Shown here piece after piece: positions 3,491 through 22,163 of a DNA stretch of 64,000 nucleotides. Source of the stretch: Bdellovibrionota bacterium (GTDB lineage: Bacteria; Bdellovibrionota_C; UBA2361; CALJRW01); contig JBGSMD010000063.1 in NCBI GenBank assembly GCA_041740355.1, forward strand, positions 53,002-117,001, given 5' to 3'. Numbering within the stretch: position 1 is the stretch's first letter; the number at the start of each line of letters is the position of its first letter. Under the pieces are notes generated by a model, which saw only the letters and a list, made by a program, of their open reading frames with translations, was not told the DNA's origin and searched no databases. Made by a program: the position numbers and the translations under genes.

Positions 3491-4462
3491 TTAATCTCTG
3501 GAAACAGAAATTACATTTCGTGGTAAATACTTAGATGTCCAAGAACGTGTGATCGGACTTCCGGCTGGACCTTCCGTCACTTCTAAAGTTATTTCAATAG
3601 CTCTTATTTCCTGCCATTGTTGACTAGACGTAAATGACGAGAAGATTGTTCCATCTTGCATCTCAACTCGAACCTGAAAATCGGTGATATTATTAGCAAT
3701 ATTCATAAAGAAACTAGGGTCATTGGAATCCACTAACTGTAAGATGTTAGTTGTAGTATCGAGCTGAATTCTCCATTCTTCCAATAGGTAAACAGAAGCA
3801 TTAGCAGCTGAAAAATTATGTTGCCAGTTTCCACTACTGGCAGTCTTGAAAATACGGTATTGGTTGACCCCGGCAGATACTGACAAATTTTCTACGCTTT
3901 CAAAAGTTAAATATTCGCCAACAAGACTAGATGCGTCGAAAATATAGGCTTTTGCTTCTCCACTATCTTCGCCGGCTAAGTATGCCCCCCAAACATTAAA
4001 GTTATTGGCATTGACACTATGACCACAAGCCCCTGGCAATGGGGTCAGATTAGTGCTGACGTAAGAAAAGAATAAATTTCGGTCGGCACTAGTAGCTGTT
4101 AAATTTTGACATAATAATAAAACTTCTTCTAATAAATTTCTTCTTAAAGTTAAAACGTCTGGTGCTCCGCTAGCACCATTTTGTAATAGGAGTGCTGGGA
4201 AAACTGCTGGTAAATTTGCACCTAACAAACGTACCTCCGACGAAATCACGTCGAAAACTCCGCGTAATTCCTGATTGGCCCGAACATTCACTACGTCTTT
4301 GGCGTAAAGCTTTTTGAATGAAATAATTGAAGACAAAACTATCGAGCTGACCACTACTAAGATCGAGGTTGAAACTAAAATCTCGACTAAAGTCATCCCT
4401 TTAATTGAGTTTCGTGAGCACGCTTTCCACTTCATAAACTTCTTTACTATCATAAGTGACAA
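3491..4462 (-). CDS. Pseudopilin / minor pilin-like protein with prepilin-type N-terminal domain
   Basis: The N terminus ...SIKG|MTLVEILVSTSILVV matches the prepilin cleavage/methylation motif (G, then a hydrophobic helix with E at +5). It is the last gene of a three-gene minus-strand operon. The start is ambiguous (Met at 4462, 4453 or 4435). Confidence 0.6.
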   Translation of the reverse strand: MSLMIVKKFMKWKACSRNSIKGMTLVEILVSTSILVVVSSIVLSSIISFKKLYAKDVVNVRANQELRGVFDVISSEVRLLGANLPAVFPALLLQNGASGAPDVLTLRRNLLEEVLLLCQNLTATSADRNLFFSYVSTNLTPLPGACGHSVNANNFNVWGAYLAGEDSGEAKAYIFDASSLVGEYLTFESVENLSVSAGVNQYRIFKTASSGNWQHNFSAANASVYLLEEWRIQLDTTTNILQLVDSNDPSFFMNIANNITDFQVRVEMQDGTIFSSFTSSQQWQEIRAIEITLEVTEGPAGSPITRSWTSKYLPRNVISVSRD

Positions 4463-15672: not shown

Positions 15673-17355
15673 TTATAGGACTGGTACATCCCCAGCACTA
15701 GCAGGAGTTTCATTATCACCAATATTGTTTGTATTACCATAACCGATACTACCAAACTCACCGCTACCCCAACACCTAACACTACCGGTATCCAGTAATA
15801 CACATGTATGAATACCTCCGGCGGCTAGTTGAACCACGGTGCCACCGACATTTACATTTCCGACACTTGCTGGAGTTTCATTGTCACCAATATTATTAGT
15901 ATTGCCATAGCCAAGCTGACCATTTAAGCCTCGGCCCCAACACCTAACATTTCCCGTATCTAGTAATGCACAGGTTTTCTTAAAACCAGTAGCTATCTGA
16001 ACTACGGTGCCTCCGACATTTACATTTCCGACATTGGCTGGAGTTTCATTGTCACCAATATTATTAGTATTTCCATAACCAAGCTCCCCATCCGAACCTT
16101 CGCCCCAGCATCTTACATTTCCCGTATCTAGTAATGCACAGGTGTGATTCCCTGAAGCGGCCAATTGAACTACATTGCCACCAATATTCACAGCCTCATA
16201 GATAAGAGGTCCAATAATGTCATAAGTGCCCCCATGGCCAAGTTGGCCATAATAACCATCCCCCCAACACTTAACATTTCCTGAATTAACCAAGGCACAT
16301 GTATGATTACTTCCTGCTACTATTTGAGTTACAGTTTCATTTTCAAAATTGTAATCTTGAATAATAACAGACTCAAAGTTAGCAGGAGCTTCATCGTCTC
16401 CAACATTAGTAGTATTTCCGTTGCCCAGTTGGCCATTTCGTCCATAACCCCAACATTTAACTTGTCCAGTATTTAAAAGTGCACAGGTATGATTTGAGCC
16501 AGCAGAGATTTGAGTAACAGTCCCGCCAACATTAACATCTCCAGCATTGGCAGGTGTTTCAAAGTATCCAACAGAAGCAGTACTACCATATCCAAGTACA
16601 CCATAGTTACCACTCCCCCAACACCTAACTTTACCTGTGTCAAGTAGGGCACAGGTATGACCCCCTCCAGTAGCGATATCAACGACATTCCCGCCAACAA
16701 TTACATCCCCAACGCTTGCTGGTGTTTCATCATCTCCAATATTATAATGTACAGGAACAGTTGCATATCCAAGTTTACCAATAAACCCCTCACCCCAACA
16801 TCTAACTGCTCCAGTATCTAGTAGAACACAAGTATGACTAAATCCTGCCGATATTTTTTGAACATCTAAAGGTATATTACATAAGTTAGAACAAGCATCG
16901 TCATTAATATTATTTCCATCATCACACTGTTCTCCAGACTGCTTGACTCCATCTCCACAAATAGGCGTTGTGCATATATTAGTACAGGAGTCCTCATTGA
17001 TCGTATTCCCATCATCACACTGTTCAGCAATATCAACATCAACTACACCATTCCCACAGGTATGATTACAAGCAACCAGTCCTGAGACATGAAGCTTCTG
17101 CATTTTTTTTGATTGATTATTATATTTATTAATTCCGGTTGAGGCGAACAACTTCTTAAAATTAGAACTTAGCTTCTTATAGGTAATAAATTTCTTTTTT
17201 TGAATCTTCCCTGGCTTCCAAGAACCATTAACGTTTTTACAAACATAATTTATACCATCCTTTTCAACGTTTACCGTCTGGGCAAAAGCCGCCCCGGAGA
17301 ATAAAAATAGGCAGACTAGCAAAGATGAGAAGATAAATTGAAATGAGTTTTTCAT
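15673..17355 (-). CDS. Secreted RCC1-repeat (beta-propeller) protein with N-terminal Myxococcus-type cysteine-rich repeats
   Basis: A signal peptide is followed by CGNG..D..EQCDDGN...C..C repeats (x2-3). Then come about nine repeats of HTCALLDTG.V+CWG.G..GQLGYGNT..IGDNETPA (RCC1 signature). A start at 17355 (MKNSF...) is preferred over 17364. Confidence 0.8.
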   Translation of the reverse strand: MKNSFQFIFSSLLVCLFLFSGAAFAQTVNVEKDGINYVCKNVNGSWKPGKIQKKKFITYKKLSSNFKKLFASTGINKYNNQSKKMQKLHVSGLVACNHTCGNGVVDVDIAEQCDDGNTINEDSCTNICTTPICGDGVKQSGEQCDDGNNINDDACSNLCNIPLDVQKISAGFSHTCVLLDTGAVRCWGEGFIGKLGYATVPVHYNIGDDETPASVGDVIVGGNVVDIATGGGHTCALLDTGKVRCWGSGNYGVLGYGSTASVGYFETPANAGDVNVGGTVTQISAGSNHTCALLNTGQVKCWGYGRNGQLGNGNTTNVGDDEAPANFESVIIQDYNFENETVTQIVAGSNHTCALVNSGNVKCWGDGYYGQLGHGGTYDIIGPLIYEAVNIGGNVVQLAASGNHTCALLDTGNVRCWGEGSDGELGYGNTNNIGDNETPANVGNVNVGGTVVQIATGFKKTCALLDTGNVRCWGRGLNGQLGYGNTNNIGDNETPASVGNVNVGGTVVQLAAGGIHTCVLLDTGSVRCWGSGEFGSIGYGNTNNIGDNETPASAGDVPVL

Positions 17356-17408
17356 ATGGATCATTAAAAAAAGGATTAACTAACTTGTTAGGACTCGGAT
17401 CTTCTTGT

Positions 17409-17730: not shown

Positions 17731-19401
17731 TTACAATACTGGCACATCGCCTGCACTAGCCGGCGTTTCGTCATCACCTATATCGTTGATATTACCATAT
17801 CCAAGATTACCCTCATCCCCATATCCCCAACATCTTACAGCACCAGTATCTAGAAGTGCACAAGTATGACTAACAATATAAGAAATTCTAGCATTTGAAG
17901 TAGTTATTTGAGTAACAGTGCCACCAACATTAATATCACCAACGCTAGCTGGAACCTCATTGTCTCCAATCGTTGTAAAATTTCCATAACCAAGTTGACC
18001 AGAACCTCCAAAACCCCAACACTTCACGGCACCAGTATCAAGTAGTGCGCAAGTGTGAGTTTTACCCGCAGATATTTGGGTTACCGTACCGCCAACATCA
18101 ACGTTATCAATACTTGCAGGTGTTTCATTGTCACCAACACTATATATATTACCGTAACCAAGTTGGCCCTCTTCGGCATATCCCCAACATTTTACTGCTC
18201 CAGTAGCTAAAAGCGCACAAGTATGATTATTGCCAGCAGATATTTGAGTTACTGTACCACCAACATTTATATCACCAACATTAGCTGGAGCCTCATTATC
18301 TCCAATAGTTTCAACATTTCCATAACCAAGTTGACCAGAACCTCCAAACCCCCAACACCTAACGGCACCATTATCAAGTAGTGCGCAAGTGTGACCACTG
18401 CCCACAGATATTTGAGTTACAGTACCGCCAACATCAACGTTACCAATACTAGCAGGTGTTTCATTGTCACCAATACTATTTGTATTACCGTAACCAAGTC
18501 GGCCATTTCCTCCATCGCCCCAACATTTTACAGCTCCAGTATCTAAAAGGGCGCAAGTATGCTTTCTACCAGCCGATATTTGAGTTACCGTACCGCCAAC
18601 ATCAACGTTACCAATACTAGCAGGTGTTTCATTGTCACCAATACTATTTGTATTACCGTAACCAAGTCGGCCATTTCCTCCATCGCCCCAACATCTTACT
18701 GCTCCAGTATCTAAGAGTGCGCATGTATGTTCTTCTCCCGCTGATACTTGAGTTATAGTACCACCTACATTCACATCTCCAACACTAGTTGGAGTTTCGT
18801 TATCTCCAATATTGATTACATTAGCATATCCAAGTTGACCAGAACCTCCATAGCCCCAACATTTAACATTACCAGTCTCCACAAGGGCACAGGTATGCGC
18901 ACCACCAGCGACTATTTCCAAGACTTTGTATAGACAAGTATTCGGACAAGTATCATCATCGTTACTATTCCCATCATCGCATTGTTCATCAGACTGGACA
19001 ATTCCATCACCACATTCTGGAAAATTACAAGAATTAGTACATAAGTCTGTGCTAACTAAATTCCCATCATCACACTGCTCACCCATGGATACGTCTAATA
19101 TTGTGTTTCCACAGGTATGACTACACGCAACTAACCCAGCTATATGCAGGTTCTTCATTTTTAGTGATTGCTTATTATATTTTTTTAAGGCAGTAGCTAC
19201 ATATAATTTCTTTAGATCTGATTGTAGTTTCTTGAAAGTTATAAATTTCTTTTTCTGGATTTTACCAGGTTTCCATGAGCCTTTAATTTGACTGCAAACA
19301 AACGTTTGTCCATCTTTAGTAACGGTAACTGTCTGTGCAAAAACTGAAGATGATAAACAAAAGAATACACAAGCGGATAATAATGAAAGCCTAATTTTCA
19401 T
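17731..19401 (-). CDS. Secreted RCC1-repeat protein with cysteine-rich repeats (paralog of 15673-17355)
   Basis: It has the same architecture and the same repeat consensus. The N-terminal 100 aa are co-linear with the paralog (…GSWKPGKIQKKKFIT.KKL…). Confidence 0.8.
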   Translation of the reverse strand: MKIRLSLLSACVFFCLSSSVFAQTVTVTKDGQTFVCSQIKGSWKPGKIQKKKFITFKKLQSDLKKLYVATALKKYNKQSLKMKNLHIAGLVACSHTCGNTILDVSMGEQCDDGNLVSTDLCTNSCNFPECGDGIVQSDEQCDDGNSNDDDTCPNTCLYKVLEIVAGGAHTCALVETGNVKCWGYGGSGQLGYANVINIGDNETPTSVGDVNVGGTITQVSAGEEHTCALLDTGAVRCWGDGGNGRLGYGNTNSIGDNETPASIGNVDVGGTVTQISAGRKHTCALLDTGAVKCWGDGGNGRLGYGNTNSIGDNETPASIGNVDVGGTVTQISVGSGHTCALLDNGAVRCWGFGGSGQLGYGNVETIGDNEAPANVGDINVGGTVTQISAGNNHTCALLATGAVKCWGYAEEGQLGYGNIYSVGDNETPASIDNVDVGGTVTQISAGKTHTCALLDTGAVKCWGFGGSGQLGYGNFTTIGDNEVPASVGDINVGGTVTQITTSNARISYIVSHTCALLDTGAVRCWGYGDEGNLGYGNINDIGDDETPASAGDVPVL

Positions 19402-19441
19402 AAATTTTTCTCAAATTTGAAGTGCTAAAAAATCGCACTTA

Positions 19442-19530
19442 TTAATCGTTAAATAATACGGCAGGTAGATAACTATCGGATCACCAAGTCTTAGACTTTA
19501 GAAAAGATAATTAATGATTAGATTGGATGA
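19442..19530 (-). promoter_or_regulatory. Conserved upstream leader/promoter block of RCC1 paralog 2
   Basis: Alignable with 17409-17497. Confidence 0.45.
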
Positions 19531-19722
19531 AGGAAAGAAGATTAAAGCTTCTTAGATACCAAGAAGAGTAACAAGCACTCCTTAAACTGTCCTGAAAGTT
19601 AAGAATATGAAGTAAACAACCGAGTCTACTTCAGGCTTTAACTCCACACCTAACAATCTAATATTACTAATTAAAATGATTTATGATTGAATAAGTGTAT
19701 AATAAACTATACACTTAACTCA

Positions 19723-20103
19723 ATGAAAAGATCTCTTCCTTCTCATCTTAACACAACTAACCTCGCAATTATCCGATGTCTCTACCTAAGCGACTTCCCA
19801 GTTCCACTTCGTGAAATCGCTTATCGAACTAATCTTCAGATTAGAACTGTACAACTGATCTTAGAAAAATTTTTGAAAGAAAAAATTGTTCGAAAAAAAC
19901 GGAAAGGGCAACGGACTTCCTATACTATTAATAAAGAAGATCCCTACATTATTTTGCTTAACGAATTTATCGAGAAGCAAAATATGATGGAACTAAATCT
20001 GGCATCTCAAGAATATTCTGAAAGAGCTACTAATGCTCTACCCAATATTGTCAAAATGTATGAATTAGTAACTAGAGGTAAGAGAGATTATGAATCTAGA
20101 TGA
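19723..20103 (+). CDS. Small winged-helix DNA-binding protein (putative antitoxin/regulator)
   Basis: LREIAYRTNLQIRTVQLILEKFLKEKIVRKKRKGQRTSYTIN has an HTH-plus-wing pattern. The ATG at 19723 is preferred over the TTG at 19687. It overlaps the next gene by 14 nt. Confidence 0.5.
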   Translation: MKRSLPSHLNTTNLAIIRCLYLSDFPVPLREIAYRTNLQIRTVQLILEKFLKEKIVRKKRKGQRTSYTINKEDPYIILLNEFIEKQNMMELNLASQEYSERATNALPNIVKMYELVTRGKRDYESR

Positions 20104-20725
20104 TATTTTTGAATATGCTGTTAAAGAACTACATGAGCGTAAATGTAAATTTGCCGTTGCTGGCGGAATAACTTCGTCTGTCTATCGCAGCGAAGTTAGA
20201 TTAACGATGGATGCAGACATACTGATCTATTCTGGAAGCGACTCTCAAAAAATTGCTGAAGAAATTTTAAACAAAATAAATTATTCTGTTTCTTCTGCAA
20301 CGATTGCTAATCTTTCCCCCGCTCCGCGAATGAATAAGAAATCTCTACCAACCCTGATTATTGTTGGCCGACCTAAAGATAAGGGAGATATTGGACTAGA
20401 TTTCATTCTCCCTGATATGCCGTGGTTCCCAAAGGCAATAAGTCGCGCGCAAGATAATTTAATTGATTTTGGGTTTGGAAAAATCCCCTGTTTAACAATT
20501 GAAGATTTTATTATTTCTAAGTTATTTGCTTATCAACTAGCTCCCAAGAGAATCAAAGATCTAGACGATCTAACTTCTGTCTTTCAAAAAAAATCAAAGC
20601 TAGATCTTTCCTATCTTTGCGCTGAGTTAGAAAGATTAAAGATTGGAATACCAAAAGAACTCTATCAAATCGCACCGAAGGCACTACGAGTTCTTAGTAA
20701 AAGAATGAAGATCTCCTCTAAATGA
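20090..20725 (+). CDS. Nucleotidyltransferase-fold protein (pol-beta superfamily; AbiEii/toxin-like)
   Basis: FAVAGGITSSVY...RLTMDADILIY matches the hG[GS]-x(9-13)-Dh[DE]h NTase signature. It is translationally coupled to the wHTH gene. Confidence 0.55.
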   Translation: MNLDDIFEYAVKELHERKCKFAVAGGITSSVYRSEVRLTMDADILIYSGSDSQKIAEEILNKINYSVSSATIANLSPAPRMNKKSLPTLIIVGRPKDKGDIGLDFILPDMPWFPKAISRAQDNLIDFGFGKIPCLTIEDFIISKLFAYQLAPKRIKDLDDLTSVFQKKSKLDLSYLCAELERLKIGIPKELYQIAPKALRVLSKRMKISSK

Positions 20726-20726
20726 A

Positions 20727-20954
20727 CTATCTATCCTTATAGAGTTCCCTCTCCAAGCTCTCCGCCACCTTTAAAATATCAGGCGAATAAGTTTTCGCTT
20801 TAACCGCAGCTTTAATGGCAGCAATCTTAGCTTTTCTTTCAGGAGTTAATTCAGGAGTAAAGCTAACTTCAATTTCTTCAACAAGTTTAGGAATTAAAGA
20901 TCTAGCATTAGACGAAGTGATACTTTGTGGAGATTTTTTTGCGGTGTTTTTCAT
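20727..20954 (-). CDS. flgM: Anti-sigma-28 factor FlgM-like protein (75 aa)
   Basis: The C-terminal ...ERKAKIAAIKAAVKAKTYSPDILKVAESLERELY matches the FlgM C-terminal helix pattern (K.A.LK.AI..G.Y.VD...A..L). The start was trimmed to MKNTAKK at 20954; the 133-aa ORF-track version has an implausible N terminus. Confidence 0.5.
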   Translation of the reverse strand: MKNTAKKSPQSITSSNARSLIPKLVEEIEVSFTPELTPERKAKIAAIKAAVKAKTYSPDILKVAESLERELYKDR

Positions 20955-21232
20955 TTTCTTTTTATAAGGCACAAGTTGACTAAGTTTCTTCAAATAGTTA
21001 GCTATAAATTTACTGACGCAAATAAAAATATTGCCTTCAATAAATGTTATGCTTAGATTTTGCTGACCTGTAACCCTATCTGAACACAAGAATAACACTT
21101 GGGGCCCAAAGCCCCAAGCTATAACCATTTGAAAAAGTGAAAAAAACCTGTAATTTACTATCGGTGCAATAATTAGCTAGCTTGAGTACTTTTTTAGATA
21201 TTTTATATTTCTTTTAACCACCTAATATTACA

Positions 21233-21701: not shown

Positions 21702-22163
21702 ATGTCAGCAAAAACAAAGCCTACAAACTTAGTACTAAAGTCGATTACCGGGGATAAAGATCCTGTTCGACTTATTGAAGATTTTATTCAAGACCTGGGC
21801 TTTGATGCCGAAGAATGTTTAAACATTCGTAGCGCTGAGACTTGTCGTTGGGTTGTTCCTCTTAATGATGAAGTTCAATTAGAGCTACTCCTAGAAAACA
21901 TTAAACAAGTCTTTGGAACTATTCTTTACATGGGTGTTAACCTAACAACTGTTCCTTTAAAAGATACTCAAAATTTTTTAATTCATGCTCTGGAAACTGC
22001 TGACTCCTTAATTGGAGTTAAGGTCAGCGTTGTTGGTCATTTCTTGGTATTAAGTAGCACTGCTAATCTACATGATAAAAACATCTCCGATATTAATTAT
22101 CAAATGACAGAATTGTTACAACAAAGCGCTTGGTATCAAGGTGCCCTAACAAATAACGATTAG
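21702..22163 (+). CDS. Hypothetical protein (153 aa; possibly a YbjN/secretion-chaperone-like fold)
   Basis: An ORF with good coding appearance. The family assignment is a guess. Confidence 0.45.
   Translation: MSAKTKPTNLVLKSITGDKDPVRLIEDFIQDLGFDAEECLNIRSAETCRWVVPLNDEVQLELLLENIKQVFGTILYMGVNLTTVPLKDTQNFLIHALETADSLIGVKVSVVGHFLVLSSTANLHDKNISDINYQMTELLQQSAWYQGALTNND

Follow-up and report, generated by a model that had tools for sequence, protein, structure and literature searches.

The window analysed here is a stretch of 64,000 nucleotides from a Bdellovibrionota bacterium (GenBank assembly GCA_041740355.1, contig JBGSMD010000063.1, positions 53,002 to 117,001 of the forward strand), and positions below are counted from its first letter. 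On its + strand, open reading frame (ORF) A (19723–20103) encodes 126 aa from an ATG and ORF B (20090–20725) encodes 211 aa, as given by ORF call and translation. The two genes probably constitute a chromosomal, self-contained toxin–antitoxin (TA)-type operon of the MenT/AbiEii (DUF1814) nucleotidyltransferase (NTase) class, with an antitoxin from an undescribed family. A first-pass annotation had proposed an AbiE-like or type IV TA candidate at this position, with a winged-helix regulator preceding an NTase toxin. That interpretation is supported as essentially right, and its reservation that the pair might be a minimal or distinct variant was well placed, as the toxin is short and MenT1-like and the partner does not belong to AbiEi/COG5340. 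The genes and their junction are as follows.

19723–20103, + strand: putative antitoxin and autorepressor gene, 126 aa (ORF call, start of the family alignment, AlphaFold (AF2) model)
20090–20725, + strand: putative toxin gene, a short DUF1814/AbiEii-family, MenT1-like nucleotidyltransferase, 211 aa (PF08843 match, AF2 model, Foldseek)
20090–20103, + strand: overlap of ORF A and ORF B, 14 nt, ATGAATCTAGATGA (read from the ORF coordinates)
20074–20087, + strand: Shine–Dalgarno-like purine-rich stretch, AGAGGTAAGAGAGA, inside the antitoxin gene and 5' of the NTase start codon (read from the sequence)

The coordinates reproduce the gene pair and the 14-nt overlap described in the first-pass annotation. 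Given this overlap and the Shine–Dalgarno-like stretch at 20074–20087, which would act in translational coupling of the NTase gene, ORF A and ORF B are probably translationally coupled.

ORF B was assigned to Pfam family PF08843 (AbiEii/DUF1814) with an E-value (E) of 6.4e-8 and 33.3 bits against a cut-off of 22.5, residues 17–173 aligning to model positions 11–175 of 238. Membership of this family had been anticipated. ORF B is not a housekeeping or resistance NTase, a match to which the first-pass annotation had named among the outcomes that would overturn its proposal. No NCBIfam or PHROG assignment was found. Searching 5.8 billion proteins yielded 240 homologues, of which almost all measure 200–232 aa; most are tagged PF08843, some PF19502 or PF09970, and NCBI gives a few the name 'AbiEii/AbiGii toxin family'. 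In an exhaustive search of 1.84 billion cluster representatives, the ORF B profile gave 113 matches at E<=1e-30 and 231 at E<=1e-10. By sequence, the ORF B family is a small, discrete clade within the very large DUF1814 superfamily.

Conservation was mapped on an alignment of 31 homologues with a mean column identity of 52%. Fourteen residues are invariant (G25, G26, R33, R37, T39, D41, D43, D104, R119, E138, D139, K144, R154 and D160). For AbiEii, Dy et al. defined motifs I–IV (hG[G/S], DhD, KLxAa..R and +DxxD), of which motif IV is specific to DUF1814 (PMC3985639). All four are present in ORF B, and the spacing of motifs I and II, hG[G/S]-x(9-15)-DhD, is x14 here. The NTase signature recognized in the first-pass annotation was confirmed as A24-G25-G26, 13 residues, then M40-D41-A42-D43-I44. 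The elements of the active site lie at the following positions.

20159–20167, + strand: NTase motif I, A24-G25-G26; G25 and G26 invariant (n = 31)
20198–20218, + strand: active-site loop and motif II, R37-L-T39-M-D41-A-D43; R37, T39, D41 and D43 invariant (n = 31)
20399–20401, + strand: D104, invariant acidic residue in the strand G-V/L-D-x-L-L-P, aligned with VVDLL of MenT1
20519–20551, + strand: motif III, K144-L-F-A-Y...R154; K144 and R154 invariant
20555–20569, + strand: motif IV, K156-D-L-D-D160; D160 invariant

D41 and D43 are predicted metal ligands, and D104 is probably the third carboxylate of the pol-beta fold.

The nearest solved relative of ORF B is MenT1. Among sequences in the PDB, the ORF B family profile matches MenT1 (8an4) over residues 3–177, almost its whole length, with E 3e-7. 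T39, D41, K137 and D152 of MenT1 align with T39, D41, K144 and D160 of ORF B. The AF2 model of ORF B has a predicted local distance difference test (pLDDT) score of 91.8, and in a Foldseek search MenT1/MenAT1 structures (8an5, 8an4, 8rr5) filled ranks 1–5, with E 6e-8 and template modelling (TM) scores of 0.59–0.72. JHP933, ANT(2'')-Ia, LnuA and MenT3/TglT ranked below them. In MenT1, the substitutions D41A, K137A and D152A each abolish toxicity, and the enzyme adds mainly cytidines at the 3' CCA ends of tRNA (PMC10435456). T39 of MenT1 is the residue that becomes auto-phosphorylated once MenA1 binds (PMC11375011). Threonine occupies the equivalent position in 194 of the 195 ORF B homologues that match the motif. 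Judged from the model and the alignments, ORF B has the MenT1 fold, the four AbiEii motifs and the MenT1 catalytic residues, and it shows every testable property of a DUF1814/AbiEii member.

ORF A was likewise modelled with AF2 (mean pLDDT 88.6). A canonical winged helix spanning residues 11–69 is followed by a single long helix of residues 74–125.

19753–19929, + strand: winged helix-turn-helix (wHTH) domain, residues 11–69, with H1, H2, H3 and the beta-wing
19942–20097, + strand: C-terminal amphipathic helical tail, residues 74–125, with R101-A-x3-L-P107 (AF2 model and conservation)

The winged-helix nature of the 126-aa protein, already proposed from its sequence, was thus corroborated by the AF2 fold and by profile matches of the ArsR/MarR type. 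No Pfam family scores above threshold with ORF A itself: DUF7342 reaches 23.4 bits against a cut-off of 31.6, and HTH_Crp_2 matches weakly. A k-mer-limited search with ORF A found only four relatives; an alignment of the upstream ORFs from related loci recovered 45 database proteins. Individually, relatives of ORF A match HTH_IclR, MarR, DUF7342 and HVO_A0114, and with the family profile ArsR/SmtB repressors, CzrA among them, were matched (E 4e-6). AbiEi is absent from the 25 Pfam families most often matched by the relatives, and no AbiEi/COG5340 family match was obtained for ORF A or 34 relatives. Assignment of ORF A as an AbiEi was rejected, there being no support from family, sequence profile or fold, and no alpha/beta C-terminal domain.

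Outside the helix-turn-helix, the best-conserved residues of ORF A are R101 (93%) and P107 (95%) among 41 homologues. They lie in an R-A-x3-L-P-F motif with amphipathic, hydrophobic periodicity. The tail would be the element that binds and neutralises the toxin. It was also considered as a homologue of MenA1, and this was rejected: a profile of residues 72–126 finds neither MenA1 nor any other relevant PDB chain at E up to 10. The antitoxin family is without description in the literature and libraries searched here, and no earlier description of a DUF1814 NTase paired with a MarR/winged-helix partner was found in the literature.

The occurrence of the two genes as a unit was assessed by scanning one genome per species, 185,579 species in all, with a 12-sequence NTase alignment. 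This gave 50 loci, in metagenome-assembled genomes (MAGs) of Bdellovibrionota, Victivallales/Lentisphaeria, Verrucomicrobiota, Kiritimatiellia, Nitrospirota and 'Deltaproteobacteria'. Where enough upstream DNA is present, about 43 of 46 loci carry a same-strand ORF of 120–145 aa that overlaps the NTase gene by 4, 11 or 14 nt. In 39 of these ~43 cases the upstream ORF is homologous to ORF A (phmmer E 1e-14 to 7e-4, and 2e-63 for the near-identical orthologue at locus L007). The wHTH–NTase pairing is far beyond chance. Lack of synteny in other genomes was the other finding named in advance as fatal to the proposal; instead the pair recurs at these ~43 of 46 loci, across several phyla and in varying contexts. 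An all-against-all comparison of neighbours at 48 loci found no conserved third gene, the neighbours being unrelated from locus to locus.

Three MAGs hold two copies each. Degenerate copies were also seen, comprising one frameshifted NTase gene and two loci with only C-terminal NTase fragments. In the first (L052, 4001–4620) an intact antitoxin gene and operator accompany an NTase gene that is broken between two frames, and an assembly error is possible; the fragments lie at L054 3777–4037 and L056 4001–4207. An AAA_14 + DUF4143 ATPase gene lies directly 3' of the module in L011 (4297–5451) and L053 (4968–6128) and about 3.5 kb away in L015 (4459–5541), and an ATPase_2/DUF234 gene lies 5' of it in L004 (3744–5189). 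At 3–4 of 48 loci, the recurring ATPase is too rare to belong to the module.

In the closest relative, GCA_031385045.1 (89% and 79% identity), the pair occupies the same place beside flgM–rlmH–menH–menD, with a different upstream neighbour. Between these two genomes both genes are under purifying selection, with ratios of nonsynonymous to synonymous substitution rates (dN/dS) of 0.09 for ORF B and 0.19 for ORF A (orthologues at L002). The dS of the TA pair is 0.67–0.73, compared with 1.1–3.0, near saturation, for flanking genes (window 19723–20725 against L002 5634–6639). This lower value could reflect a more recent exchange of the module or an extra constraint on its DNA.

An inverted-repeat search and motif conservation identified a putative operator immediately upstream of ORF A, within a promoter-like arrangement.

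19687–19692, + strand: -35-like hexamer TTGAAT, separated by a 17-nt spacer from the -10-like hexamer; contains the TTG of a spurious 138-aa ORF
19696–19713, no strand assigned: putative operator, 18-bp palindrome TGTATAATAAACTATACA
19710–19715, + strand: -10-like hexamer TACACT, made up of the final 4 nt of the palindrome and the next 2 nt

The palindrome lies in perfect 10-nt inverted-repeat arms (19692–19701 and 19708–19717) with a 6-nt spacer. Its consensus is TGT(C/A)(T/C)AA-N4-TT(G/A)(T/G)ACA, i.e. TGTMYAA-N4-TTRKACA. Scanning for TGTNNA-N6-TNNACA with <=1 mismatch located it at the same position 5' of the antitoxin gene in 41 of 47 loci, whereas the remaining DNA of those loci gives a chance expectation of 0.067 per 220 nt. 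The motif matches only once in the 64-kb window. Positions 2, 6, 7, 13, 16 and 17 are nearly invariant. In half of the six loci that lack the pattern, positions 6 and 13 change jointly (A/T to G/C or T/A), which is what recognition by a symmetric dimer predicts.

Sequence conservation indicates a sigma-70-type promoter consisting of TTGAAT, a 17-nt spacer and TACACT, with the palindrome embedded in the spacer and the -10 element. The -35-like hexamer lies 3 nt 5' of the palindrome, and 23 of 41 related loci have one at the same spacing with four or more of its six positions matching. The A2/T6 signature of the -10-like hexamer (TACAnT or GACAnT) is found in 36 of 41. With a repressor on the palindrome, both spacer and -10 element would be occupied, which implies autorepression. 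The antitoxin ATG lies 8 nt past the palindrome in 25 of 41 loci (range 3–14 nt), and the gap between the -10 element and the ATG is 7 nt in the window and 6 nt in most loci. This distance leaves no space for a 5' untranslated region or a Shine–Dalgarno sequence, so that translation of the antitoxin most likely proceeds from a leaderless mRNA, with transcription starting at or beside the ATG. The conserved operator and the leaderless layout are new elements of this analysis.

The same layout bears on the start codon of ORF A. The longest ORF in its frame opens at TTG 19687 and would encode 138 aa. This start was rejected in favour of ATG 19723, where the family alignment begins, since the TTG belongs to the -35 element. 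In L003, a relative of the window, the TTG in the -35 element is called as the antitoxin start, again giving 138 aa. At L016–L020, L032, L034, L036 and similar loci (~3604–3631), an in-frame ATG lying within the operator (ATGTCTAA...) is often called as the antitoxin start. The called protein then carries a spurious 'MSNxLYTYC' extension, as in 135-aa forms such as P0129 and P0137. An ATG of this kind accounts for the 135-aa gene calls in loci of the Planctomycetes–Verrucomicrobia–Chlamydiae (PVC) clade.

Taken as a working model, the module would operate as follows. A dimer of the 126-aa winged-helix protein would bind the palindrome and repress its own operon, which the sequence evidence makes very likely. 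By analogy with MenT1, free ORF B would add nucleotides, probably pyrimidines, to the 3' CCA ends of tRNAs, thereby blocking aminoacylation and arresting growth. Toxicity of the free enzyme is fairly likely on this analogy, and if it is toxic, tRNA is its probable target. The C-terminal helix of the antitoxin, with its R101-A-x3-L-P107 motif, may bind the NTase directly and neutralise it, an assignment that is somewhat favoured. Neutralisation might take either of two routes. The tail might occlude the active site or sequester the toxin, as in the MenA1:MenT1 heterotrimer. Alternatively, it might push T39 towards the bound nucleoside triphosphate so that the toxin phosphorylates itself, a type VII mechanism. 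This second route, also argued by analogy, is possible but the less probable outcome; the invariant threonine at T39 is consistent with auto-phosphorylation, though not evidence of it. If the antitoxin were lost or transcription ceased, toxin that is newly made and still unmodified would be set free. Candidate roles of the module are phage defence, stabilisation of a genomic region and stress-linked growth control.

For MenT1 and AbiEii, it has been demonstrated that the antitoxin induces the toxin to phosphorylate its own active-site Ser or Thr, and the same has been proposed for MenT3; the antitoxins concerned are unrelated to one another. A more specific and rather speculative proposal is that ORF A is a fourth independent neutraliser of MenT/AbiEii toxins. 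It would combine a generic ArsR/MarR-type winged helix with a MenA1-like 'trigger' helix, of which the R101...L-P107 segment would insert by the T39 loop and cause self-phosphorylation.

Several observations weigh against a TA module of this kind. Toxicity, substrate, protein–protein contact and DNA binding have all been inferred. MenT1 is not toxic in E. coli and toxicity of MenT2 was undetectable (PMC10435456), so homology is no guarantee that ORF B is toxic. PADLOC AbiEii models match ORF B weakly (best E 0.004, 14.5 bits). ORF A is basic, with an isoelectric point (pI) of 9.8 and a family median of 11.4, and similarity to AbiEi, to MenA1 or to any known antitoxin could not be detected; its neutralising role is consequently argued only from gene order, the overlap and conservation of the tail. 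As Pro107 is conserved, the modelled 52-residue tail as a single helix is probably idealised, and the proline suggests that the helix is really kinked. No relatives of the family were found in plasmids or phages by tblastn or in IMG/VR contigs by scanning. The flanks of the locus are housekeeping genes and its G+C content is unremarkable, so that the context offers no support for mobility or defence.

Comparison with characterised systems places the locus close to MenAT1 (Rv0078B/Rv0078A) of Mycobacterium tuberculosis. Both have a short DUF1814 NTase of about 200 aa, and among solved structures the MenAT1 toxin is the nearest to ORF B, with a profile E of 3e-7 and fold TM scores reaching 0.72. 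In both, the antitoxin gene comes first and the part of the antitoxin that contacts the toxin is essentially an extended alpha-helix, as predicted here for ORF A. Nevertheless, MenA1 has 68 aa and no DNA-binding domain, whereas in the 126 aa of ORF A the helix is fused to an ArsR/MarR-like winged helix. Toxin identity is only ~17–19%, the ORF A tail has no detectable similarity to MenA1, and actinobacteria are not among the hosts of the present family, which is found in Bdellovibrionota, PVC phyla and Nitrospirota. The locus is not a MenAT1 system because ORF A is not MenA1-like.

SanaTA of Shewanella sp. ANA-3 also pairs a DUF1814 toxin with an unusually small (136 aa) antitoxin of winged-helix type. 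SanaA, compared by description only, reportedly keeps a distant similarity to COG5340 and the AbiEi loop, and SanaTA confers resistance to T7; nothing comparable is known for the family described here. Type II TA systems share the antitoxin-first order, the overlapping genes, the core-promoter palindrome and an N-terminal DNA-binding domain with a C-terminal toxin-binding tail, the latter predicted here. They differ in that the toxin is here an NTase and not an RNase or gyrase poison, the antitoxin is basic and not acidic, and neutralisation may be covalent, through induced auto-phosphorylation, rather than by sequestration. A reading as an MNT–HEPN or PDC-M05 system was rejected. PDC-M05 consists of an NTase and a HEPN protein, whereas neither protein here matches HEPN and the partner is a wHTH protein. 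A weak PDC-M05A match to ORF A (E 2e-4) is confined to the wHTH region.

The resemblance to AbiE of Lactococcus lactis and Streptococcus agalactiae, and to MenAT3 and MenAT4, raises the question whether the locus is AbiE in the strict sense, i.e. an AbiEi-type antitoxin and an AbiEii toxin that make no contact (type IV) and serve primarily in phage defence. AbiE is among the commonest defence systems, and the locus shares with it the Pfam family and motifs I–IV of the toxin, the bicistronic order with the winged-helix regulator first, and a promoter inverted repeat that implies autorepression. To this extent the AbiE-like architecture of the first-pass annotation stood, in an AbiEii-family toxin within a regulator-first pair. 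AbiEi, MenA3 and MenA4 belong to COG5340, with ~200 aa and an alpha/beta C-terminal domain, whereas ORF A is a 126-aa protein whose tail is purely helical, and neither it nor the 34 relatives match that family. Canonical toxins have ~280–300 aa, compared with 211 aa in ORF B and its partial coverage of the Pfam model. The operators differ as well, abiE having two 23-bp repeats (PMC3985639) and the present locus a single 18-bp palindrome. In the PADLOC check suggested in the first-pass annotation, AbiE models matched only weakly (E ~4e-3), so that the locus would probably not be called AbiE; no AbiEi match was found for it among the PADLOC models. Neither phage or plasmid copies nor a defence-island context were found, and no defence-gene neighbourhood was seen in the comparison of neighbours around related loci. 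Nothing in the analysis connects the module with phage defence, and these absences count neither for nor against phage resistance. In addition, the type IV label of AbiE is itself disputed: the no-contact model is contradicted for S. agalactiae AbiE, and a 2026 preprint reclassifies AbiE as type VII (10.64898/2026.01.19.700257). Strict AbiE is therefore improbable, on the grounds of the missing COG5340 antitoxin, the weak PADLOC scores and the differing operator architecture.

About equally improbable is a domesticated, non-toxic NTase that modifies an RNA or a small molecule, with the wHTH protein as a plain transcription factor and not an antitoxin. Such an operon would suit the housekeeping neighbours, the flank-like G+C content, the retention of the same site in the related genome and the purifying selection on both genes; some MenT homologues have little or no toxicity, and a basic wHTH protein resembles an ordinary regulator. 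It would not account well for the patchy spread over several phyla among unrelated neighbours, the multiple copies per genome and the decayed copies. The strictly conserved gene overlap, the invariant phospho-acceptor threonine and a strongly conserved regulator tail that DNA binding does not need also speak against it. The patchy spread, overlap, threonine and tail are more in keeping with a selfish or conflict module than with a housekeeping operon. An antibiotic-modifying enzyme of the ANT(2'')-Ia or Lnu type under a MarR/ArsR-type repressor is far less probable again. Resistance genes are often controlled by MarR-type repressors, and ANT(2'')-Ia and LnuA are among the fold matches (E 6e-5 to 1e-3, TM ~0.45–0.6). 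They rank below MenT1, however; ORF B has no sequence match to resistance NTases in Pfam, NCBIfam or the PDB, it possesses the DUF1814-specific motifs III and IV with the catalytic Lys and Asp of MenT, and the regulator lacks a ligand-binding domain. This reading was rejected on match ranking and motifs. A MenT/AbiEii-class TA operon with its own type of antitoxin is thus the preferred account of the locus.

The immediate surroundings of the operon correspond to the description in the first-pass annotation, which had placed the pair between RCC1 paralogues and flgM and noted an AT-rich upstream region. Two RCC1-repeat paralogues lie upstream on the - strand (15673–17364 and 17731–19401; RCC1_2, E 1e-67 and 3e-70). 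They are arranged in tandem, each of ~560 aa with DUF4215 Cys-rich repeats and 7 RCC1 repeats, and an N-terminal hydrophobic, signal-like segment is apparent by eye from the translation. Both are absent from the syntenic position in GCA_031385045.1, where a DUF2238 gene is found instead, and the TA pair therefore lies at a synteny break. The 320-nt intergenic region 5' of ORF A is the most AT-rich stretch of the neighbourhood. The G+C content is 0.315 over 19200–19799, compared with ~0.33–0.39 in most adjoining 600-bp windows and up to 0.44 inside the RCC1 genes.

Downstream, a convergent FlgM-like ORF (20727–21128, - strand) matches PF04316 at 23.4 bits, just under the 25-bit cut-off. Its longest form has 133 aa, and the FlgM match spans residues 95–125 only. 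Since the gene call for the relative's orthologue gives 75 aa, and given the position of the match, the true start is probably internal. Further downstream, between rlmH and menH, a 153-aa ORF (21702–22163, + strand) has no Pfam family and is 93% identical to the orthologue in the relative; its dN/dS of 0.02 marks a strongly constrained protein.

Three antitoxin families are known for MenT/AbiEii-type toxins in M. tuberculosis. The ORF A family would be a fourth antitoxin type for toxins of this group, one that is annotated in no searched library. The locus belongs to a family of ~100–230 protein clusters (at 50% identity); its antitoxin keeps a DNA-binding domain, and a helical tail takes the place of the AbiEi C-terminal domain. 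The family comes almost wholly from uncultured Bdellovibrionota, PVC phyla and Nitrospirota, in which TA biology is essentially unexplored. The overall picture of MenT/AbiEii systems is unchanged; to a known toxin family the locus adds an antitoxin family, an operator and a leaderless layout, all of them new. The arrangement of operator, promoter and leaderless start gives precise predictions and corrects start-codon calls across the family. The module is also a compact system in which to ask how general induced auto-phosphorylation is. If the tentative trigger-helix proposal were true, one short helix, attachable to any DNA-binding domain, would suffice for type VII control, and the module would be the simplest fully self-contained, autoregulated NTase toxin module known.

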